Shown: in pieces, positions 1,797 to 1,876 of the stretch
How positions within the stretch are numbered: the stretch's first letter is position 1
Layout of the letters: every line of letters starts with the position of its first letter
Virus record (IMG/VR): IMGVR_UViG_2675903357_000009
Strand: one strand, 5' to 3'
From: a virus
Lineage: Duplodnaviria > Heunggongvirae > Uroviricota > Caudoviricetes
Length of the DNA: 10,089 nt
The notes under the pieces: generated by a model
Database searches by the model: none
Told to the model about the DNA's origin: nothing
The model's input: only the letters and a program-made list of their open reading frames with translations
Made by a program: the position numbers and the translations under genes

Positions 1797-1876
1797 TGGA
1801 CCGCCATCGGGGACCCGCCCCCGCACCAACAACCCTGTTATCGTGTCGTCTGCTCTTCCTGATAAGCTAATGGCGG
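1797..1876 (-). pseudogene. Degenerate tRNA-like remnant in the argN position
   Basis: Keeps both acceptor-stem halves, the D arm and CCA of the argN copy at 4187-4263, but the anticodon arm and T loop are replaced by sequence that does not fold as a tRNA (80 nt). Confidence 0.55.

Follow-up and report, generated by a model that had tools for sequence, protein, structure and literature searches.

A degenerate tRNA-like element in the middle slot of a lambdoid-prophage ileZ–argO tRNA cluster

Relics of tRNA genes in phage tRNA clusters are already known, and annotation pipelines flag better-preserved relatives of the element described here as pseudo or undetermined tRNAs. The tRNA gene cluster of T4 also contains the stable RNAs "species 1" and "species 2", small non-tRNA RNAs that are co-transcribed and processed with the tRNAs. 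Other phage tRNAs act against host defence: a phage tRNA-Lys counters PARIS AriB, and the tRNA-Thr(UGU) of phage 21 counters P2 Old (PMC12445682; see also PMC10264068 and PMC11464382). No description of the present element was found in the literature searched, including that on ileZ, argN and argO.

The DNA analysed here (the window) comprises 10,089 nt of the Caudoviricetes record IMGVR_UViG_2675903357_000009. Five tRNA genes, all on the minus strand, were called by ARAGORN, and the same five were matched by the Rfam tRNA model. They lie in two clusters, with the order ileZ–argN(UCG)–argO in cluster 2 and ileZ–80-nt element–argO in cluster 1. An earlier note, made from the letters of the window, had proposed that argN is intact in one cluster and degenerate in the other, and this is borne out by the five calls, none of which lies at 1797-1876. 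With a probability of roughly three in four, we take the element for a dead allele in the middle ("argN") slot of the lambdoid-prophage cassette ileZ–X–argO and for a passenger therein. The cassette has its place between the antiterminator Q and the lysis or toxin genes.

Two tRNA clusters in two prophage modules

The features of the clusters and of the region between them are as follows.

1707-1783, minus strand: argO-type tRNA-Arg(TCT), cluster 1 (ARAGORN; Rfam 68 bits)
1797-1876, minus strand: degenerate tRNA-like element of 80 nt, counting the encoded CCA (called by neither ARAGORN nor Rfam; cloverleaf-like MFE fold)
1884-1959, minus strand: ileZ-type tRNA (CAT), cluster 1 (ARAGORN Met/Ile2(CAT); Rfam 72.5 bits)
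2003-2022, minus strand: terminator-like hairpin with U run, between the truncated Q and ileZ
2062-2463, minus strand: antiterminator gene Q, truncated to its C-terminal 133 aa, upstream of cluster 1 (Pfam Antiterm 8.5e-32)
2791-3609, plus strand: IS3-family transposase ORF (NCBIfam transpos_IS3 1.1e-99)
4097-4173, minus strand: argO-type tRNA-Arg(TCT), cluster 2 (ARAGORN, Rfam)
4187-4263, minus strand: argN, tRNA-Arg(TCG), the intact comparator, cluster 2 (ARAGORN; Rfam 58 bits; fold z = -2.85)
4271-4346, minus strand: ileZ-type tRNA, Met/Ile2(CAT), cluster 2 (ARAGORN, Rfam)

Pairwise alignment of the clusters showed ileZ to be identical and argO to match at 76 of 77 positions, with one base different, as the earlier note had described them, and its tRNA-Arg(UCG) in the middle of cluster 2 was recovered as well (ARAGORN call, Rfam 58 bits). 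A gene identical to ileZ at 1884-1959 is named tRNA-Ile by PGAP. The boundaries 1797-1876 proved exact, the minus strand reading 80 nt from CCGCCAU to GGCGGUCCA. When the element is aligned with argN, the two agree in the first 11 nt, differ once in the following nine and agree again in the last ~18 nt, with a scrambled interior; the length differs by only +3 nt, and orientation and spacing are those of both flanking tRNA genes.

Read along the minus strand from the high end, the window consists of an IS end (10018-10089), hok/sok, DUF968, RusA, Q (6018-6839), an N6/N4 methyltransferase gene (4387-5445), cluster 2, STnc100, an IS3-family element (~2480-3657), the truncated Q, the hairpin (2022-2003), cluster 1, STnc100, iraM and a further IS end (1-77). 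Repeats of the IS end occur at 1-77, 3581-3657 and 10018-10089, the two outer copies (72-77 nt) being one direct and one inverted. The IS3-family element separates both prophage modules, in which the tRNA genes have different surroundings: Q lies directly upstream of cluster 1, as against Q plus methyltransferase upstream of cluster 2, and the truncated Q is 99% identical to the longer one (2097-2396 versus 6020-6319). The window thus represents two different prophage late-regulatory modules joined by an IS and not a recent tandem duplication, and it is the different origin of the modules that accounts for one intact and one dead allele. As a whole this arrangement is found in no complete E. 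coli genome, the best match reaching 85% coverage at 95% identity in six pieces. From its position, the hairpin at 2003-2022 may be tR', which would place cluster 1 in the Q-dependent late transcript; the element would be co-transcribed with ileZ and argO, either from there or from a local promoter.

Both modules carry further small genes. STnc100 was found by Rfam in two copies on the minus strand, 821-1010 and 3831-4020 (132 and 124 bits), downstream of the tRNA clusters at ~700 nt from cluster 1 and ~80 nt from cluster 2, and apparently this sRNA belongs to the same late-leader unit. The second module has a sok antitoxin RNA (9003-9178, minus strand, Rfam 112 bits) and a hok-like ORF (8853-9065) upstream of the DUF968–RusA–Q block; the first has iraM (460-795, plus strand), coding for an anti-adapter protein and present likewise in the E. 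coli prophage of locus L001.

Anatomy of the 80-nt element

No tRNA finder accepts 1797-1876, with or without an intron: ARAGORN returned no tRNA by default, with introns allowed or at thresholds down to 70%, and the Rfam tRNA model gave no match within 1770-1900 even at E<=10. A permissive scan for other structured RNA families (Rfam 15) led only to a chance-level lncRNA match (9 bits, E = 8.6). The arms were parsed by rule in a script, the MAFFT alignment having misplaced a one-nucleotide register shift in one group of related genes (those of the L161 type, see below), with the following result, given from the 5' end of the RNA.

1870-1876, minus strand: acceptor stem 5' strand CCGCCAU, as in argN, pairing 7/7 with 1801-1807 and followed by UA
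1852-1867, minus strand: D arm, GCUU, loop AUCAGGAA, GAGC; stem paired 4/4, GG in the loop
1829-1849, minus strand: former anticodon arm, ACGAC, loop ACGAUAACAGG, GUUGU; 5-bp helix with an 11-nt loop
1824-1828, minus strand: variable loop UGGUG (AGGUG in relatives), from the arm parse
1808-1823, minus strand: former T arm CGGGG, loop GCGGGU, CCCCG; stem intact, loop of 6 nt and G-rich
1797-1807, minus strand: acceptor stem 3' strand AUGGCGG, discriminator U and CCA, from alignment and arm parse

Measured against canonical tRNA (RF00005), the element thus keeps the 7-bp acceptor stem, the discriminator base, the 3' CCA and the 4-bp D stem, and fails on the 7-nt anticodon loop with U33 and purine 37 and on the 7-nt T-psi-C loop. 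Its D stem has one U-G pair where argN has C-G, the D loop is 1 nt shorter than that of argN, and the junction to the stem at the anticodon position is AG, two nucleotides rather than one. For the former anticodon arm the MFE fold offers an alternative pairing, CGAUAAC-AGG-GUUGUUG, and the run ACGAC|ACGAU at its 5' side looks like a putative 5-nt tandem duplication. In the T loop, T54, psi55 and A58 are all lost, and the G run left in its place is prone to slippage. The MFE structure as a whole is a four-way cloverleaf, with a stability no better than that of shuffled sequences (z = -1.3, compared with -2.9 for argN). The view of the earlier note that only the acceptor and D arms are retained is too narrow, as both strands of the T stem and the 5-bp helix ACGAC/GUUGU also survive.

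Because both the 7-nt anticodon loop and the T-psi-C loop are absent, the element cannot decode, and as in a tRNA relic the syntenic slot, the ends and the spacers of argN are kept while the decoding essentials are lost. A phage rescue tRNA, by comparison, would have a 7-nt loop and an identifiable anticodon, and the element has neither. Arginyl-tRNA synthetase recognises the anticodon of tRNA-Arg; charging of the element with arginine is therefore unlikely, as it lacks this anticodon. With its acceptor stem and CCA intact, the element is probably still cut out by RNase P and 3' trimming, and the resulting RNA would then be without function, the element most likely being a passenger.

The earlier note had left open whether the interior reflects pseudogenisation or a structured insertion. 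The idea of an intron, or of a small mobile insertion with structure, inside an otherwise intact tRNA gene draws solely on the impression of conserved ends around a foreign core. The net gain compared with argN is only +3 nt, the core matches only the same locus in the phage collection and has no Rfam match, and none of the possible single contiguous deletions of 1-40 nt of the element led to an ARAGORN tRNA call, which argues for at least two independent lesions, one in the anticodon region and one in the T loop. As both the intron mode and this exhaustive deletion scan were negative, an intron or insertion was rejected; we regard it as extremely unlikely. Pseudogenisation stands in its broad sense, from the failure to decode, the missing finder calls and the slippage and stem-breaking changes in sister copies described below, but not in the sense that the argN(UCG) of copy 2 decayed in place.

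Origin of the core and its decay

In blastn searches of the phage collection with the 51-nt core, only the same locus and chance 23-nt matches in mycobacteriophage tail genes were detected, and a foreign origin of the core was rejected on this basis. The database comparison proposed in the earlier note thus brought up the same locus in other phages and no known outside element. Nor is the core "unrelated", as sister phage tRNA-like genes correspond to it in stem, variable loop and D loop. Compared with CCAGC/GCUGG in argN, the stem ACGAC/GUUGU shows two changes on both sides with pairing kept, and stem plus variable loop match the L161-type genes at 14 of 15 positions; the 8-nt D loop matches them too. 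In L161 itself the region reads GAGC-A-ACGAC[CAUUAA]GUUGU-AGGUA, and the same stem with a 6-nt loop is found in L161, L159, L224 and L281.

Besides the window copy, the lineage as parsed consists of 32 distinct sequences from lambdoid-type phages of Escherichia, Yersinia and other hosts. It includes the following loci.

IMG/VR loci, part 1: L161, L159, L224, L281, L181, L186, L200, L235, L249, L255, L276-L279
IMG/VR loci, part 2: L283, L292, L295, L297-L299, L150, L142, L128, L046
Named phages: Yersinia phage YeP1 (L301:3001-3078) and PhiR47_1 (L302:2999-3075)

These genes lie after Q and before a holin gene, beside a tRNA-Met(CAT)-type gene and tRNA-Gly or tRNA-Thr genes. They have in common the acceptor strand CCGCCAY with a covariation of U7-A66 to C7-G66, a canonical T arm and the GUUGU stem strand, the conservation of GTTGT and of the T arm being partly due to ascertainment because the search patterns fixed those parts. 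The anticodon loops comprise 4-11 nt (e.g. CAUUUAA, CAUAUAA, CAUUAA, CAUUGCU and CUGAG) with A or C at position 33 and never U33, and the discriminator base varies. The identities given by ARAGORN are inconsistent (Lys, Ile, Gln, Leu, Cys or "???"), and six of the seven members tested fall below the threshold of the Rfam tRNA model. The YeP1 copy is labelled "tRNA-Pseudo-TTG" in GenBank, and the relative in Escherichia phage PhiR47_1, more canonical in form and with the loop CCUUUAA, is called tRNA-Lys. Such a lineage could be a series of pseudogenes or a non-decoding tRNA mimic; its paired stems and the 7-66 covariation would argue that the ancestral gene did something.

Genes of similar build occur elsewhere. 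The tRNA-like genes L122:6470-6550, L124 and L126 (Raoultella, Klebsiella) and L105 have the same acceptor stem but stand singly, not in an ileZ cluster; their anticodon stem is mismatched, their variable region measures 8 nt, and ARAGORN calls them tRNA-His(GTG). At L303:2050-2200 (minus strand) the cassette is laid out differently: only 1 nt separates an ileZ-like gene from the next tRNA, which has the argO acceptor stem and a UUCCGAA loop (Arg CCG-like), and a Gly-type gene comes after it, a further case of anticodon switching on the common scaffold.

Middle-slot copies of the cassette (~120 from IMG/VR) were gathered by a pattern on the slot ends, and further copies by core patterns. They form a series of increasing decay. 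At its start stand copies (e.g. L131, of the B type) that have this core and in which the T arm, CGGGG[UUCGAGU]CCUCG, is wholly preserved. The phiP27 form follows with one T-stem mismatch; it bears the PGAP label "tRNA-OTHER" in an Stx2e prophage (NZ_CP137737). Third comes the window form, in which the T loop is gone and the D stem has a C-to-U change, and fourth other E. coli copies with G runs of 9, 10 and 13 G, a G-to-A mismatch in the acceptor stem and U8-to-G. In addition, U7 is changed to C without compensation in L133, L103 has small deletions, and substitutions occur in loops. As the same core is found with a perfect T arm, the difference in the anticodon arm must precede the loss of the T loop and be independent of it. 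When ~5 nt were deleted from the intact-T-arm copy, ARAGORN accepted the cloverleaf, although with implausible anticodons; this is consistent with reading the 11-nt loop of the element as what it looks like, a 6-nt-loop gene plus a probable 5-nt tandem duplication (ACGAC|ACGAU).

The same slot, identical flanks and identical gene ends could also be explained if copy 1 were the argN(UCG) of copy 2, worn by point mutations and small indels after a duplication, and T-loop intermediates do exist in otherwise intact argN alleles (UUCGGGU to GUCGGGU in L091 to GGCGGGU in L030). Random decay would not be expected, however, to yield two double changes that keep pairing and a match of 14/15 to another lineage, the core occurs with a perfect T arm, and the clusters stand in different module contexts with an IS between them and not in tandem. 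Decay in place is therefore quite improbable in our view.

The dead-allele reading would instead derive the element from the sister phage tRNA-like lineage, and neither from the neighbouring argN(UCG) nor by insertion. The genes of this lineage have the acceptor stem, D arm and T arm in common with argN, an anticodon stem AYRAC/GUUGU and an already non-canonical loop, which in the E. coli branch was presumably stretched to 11 nt by the duplication. The T loop would have been lost later, by way of UUCGAGU, GGCGGGU and GCGGGU, leaving the G run that now slips, and the intact and dead alleles probably arrived with different prophage modules.

Among 62 window-form cassettes, closely related copies in which only the part unfixed by the search pattern was scored, element diversity amounts to 0.016 per site, compared with 0.013 in the adjacent spacer, 0.002 in ileZ (8-fold lower than the element) and 0.042 in argO, which exceeds the element because several argO alleles recombine in. 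Of the complete E. coli genomes that carry the element, 10% have a best match to it of less than 95% identity, as against 0.2% for ileZ and 1% for argO, a comparison in which scoring the best of several copies favours ileZ. The diversity and identity data would fit a relaxed constraint on the element, although conservation, the absence of deletions and the diversity contrast have little power since the sampled copies are closely related.

Two side observations concern the same positions in other copies. In L140:4411-4491 (minus strand), both units of the putative duplication carry a C-to-U change, AUGAC|AUGAU versus ACGAC|ACGAU (window 1829-1849), and in one of two possible registers of the helix each altered base still has a G to pair with; candidate causes are selection, parallel change and conversion of one repeat by the other. 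In several argN- or Arg(UCU)-type phage tRNAs (L091:10225-10301, L030:7070-7146, L168, L175 and L157), G replaces the universal T54 to give GUCGGGU or GUCGAGU, or two Gs give GGCGGGU, each replacement lengthening the G run of the T stem in genes that are otherwise intact. Such recurrent loss of T54 points to a hotspot of mutation or to a relaxation of selection that is widespread among prophage tRNAs.

Distribution, possible function and comparison with known systems

Of 5426 complete E. coli genomes, 1813 carry the 80-nt element, with 2062 matching places in all. Annotation under the match was missing in 39 of 40 sampled rows (PGAP, complete E. coli genomes). Since the same 80 nt are the best element match at at least 99% identity in 912 complete E. 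coli genomes, a sequencing artefact is excluded. For the intact argN the corresponding numbers are 2105 places in 1208 genomes, and for ileZ 7527 places in 3057. The exact 286-bp cluster 1 occurs at at least 99% in ~1000 complete E. coli records, in which PGAP annotates only tRNA-Ile and tRNA-Arg. When one genome per species was searched with the flank pattern, only seven loci were obtained; the sole type-1 copy was that of E. coli, and Citrobacter had a relative. In IMG/VR no contig with a simply deleted slot was detected, the one match abutting ileZ being a different cluster (ileZ-like, then Arg(CCG)-like). Phage mEp460 carries the element, as do several E. coli phages obtained by induction (vB_EcoS isolates), and in phiP27 (NC_003356) its core fills the unannotated 101-nt gap between ileZ and argO (17234-17334), directly upstream of stx2e.

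As this gap is filled by the core, the published "ileZ–argO" two-tRNA clusters are to be read as cassettes of three genes, the middle one being dead. This explains why annotation has a systematic gap here, for phiP27-like clusters and many of those in E. coli prophages hold this dead gene, and about one third of complete E. coli genomes carry the relic unlabelled. Taken alone, the element of the window is an ordinary gene remnant. The middle slot proves labile, with Arg(UCG), Lys-like, pseudo and dead alleles on one conserved scaffold, and this bears on the idea that conflict over tRNA-cleaving defence shapes phage tRNA clusters.

Several points speak against a dead allele. It is very common (1813/5426 complete E. 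coli genomes) and occurs also in plaque-forming or inducible phages (mEp460, phiP27, vB_EcoS); the majority allele has suffered no damage to its acceptor stem, CCA or D arm; IMG/VR yielded no contig that simply lacks the slot; and stem pairing, with the 7-66 covariation, is kept in the wider lineage. The element might thus be a functional but non-decoding tRNA mimic that is excised by RNase P and acts via its acceptor-stem/CCA end or its shape, be it as decoy or competitive substrate for host enzymes or tRNA-attacking nucleases, or as a processing or stability element of the late transcript. Its prevalence and its occurrence in active phages would agree with this, as would the intact acceptor stem, CCA and D arm in a cloverleaf-like fold. 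In the parent lineage, moreover, a canonical scaffold combined with loops of 4-11 nt that never have U33 and with a varying discriminator is the pattern that a shape-only role would give, and tRNAs of lambdoid and other phages do counter tRNA nucleases (PMC12445682). In the commonest E. coli allele, however, the T loop needed for the L shape is lost, slippage and stem-breaking changes occur in further copies, diversity equals that of spacers, the fold is no better than shuffles (z = -1.3), and part of the conservation seen in the parent lineage was produced by the search patterns. We therefore consider a mimic unlikely for the element.

For the lineage as a whole, we see a similarly low chance that it represents tRNA-shaped RNAs of lambdoid phages kept for a non-decoding job, with a loop free or driven to vary. 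If so, a candidate job would be that of decoy or competitive substrate for tRNA-targeting nucleases or tRNA-modifying enzymes in late phage development, and the copy in the window would be a decayed member or a stripped-down version acting through the acceptor end only. An eLife paper on anticodon-loop mutations of phage tRNAs mentions neither decoys nor pseudogenes nor position 33. A lineage with a conserved scaffold and a variable loop deserves an unbiased survey.

Set against known systems, the element is unrelated to T4 species 1 and 2 in sequence and size. Rescue tRNAs are likewise phage-borne, with altered anticodon arms and an anti-defence context, and phage 21 is a close relative of Lambda, but they serve in translation and retain a working anticodon, that of the tRNA whose place they take, whereas the element has no usable anticodon. 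With argN of the Stx/lambdoid phages (annotated so in Stx2a_WGPS9) it shares the slot between ileZ and argO, the acceptor stem, the discriminator U, the CCA, the T and D stems and the 7-nt and 13-nt spacers. It differs in the anticodon arm (CCAGC[CUUCGAA]GCUGG versus ACGAC/GUUGU with an 11-nt loop), in the T loop (UUCAAGU versus GCGGGU), in the variable loop and in not being recognised as a tRNA. The phiP27 gap and the "tRNA-OTHER" of NZ_CP137737 have an identical anticodon-region core, AGACGACACGAUAACAGGGUUGUUGGUG, and the same ends and flanks; phiP27 is set apart by a canonical T loop UUCGAGU, one T-stem mismatch and the D stem GCUC, where the element has no T loop. Finally, the lambdoid relatives YeP1 "tRNA-Pseudo-TTG" (tRNA-OTHER), L161, L249, L186 and PhiR47_1 have canonical T arms and loops of 4-7 nt, in contrast to the 11-nt loop and missing T loop of the element, and resemble it in niche, in the acceptor CCGCCAY, in a variable loop xGGUG and in the encoded CCA; the GUUGU 3' strand of the anticodon stem is common to the element and these relatives, with the one exception of PhiR47_1, which has GUUGA.
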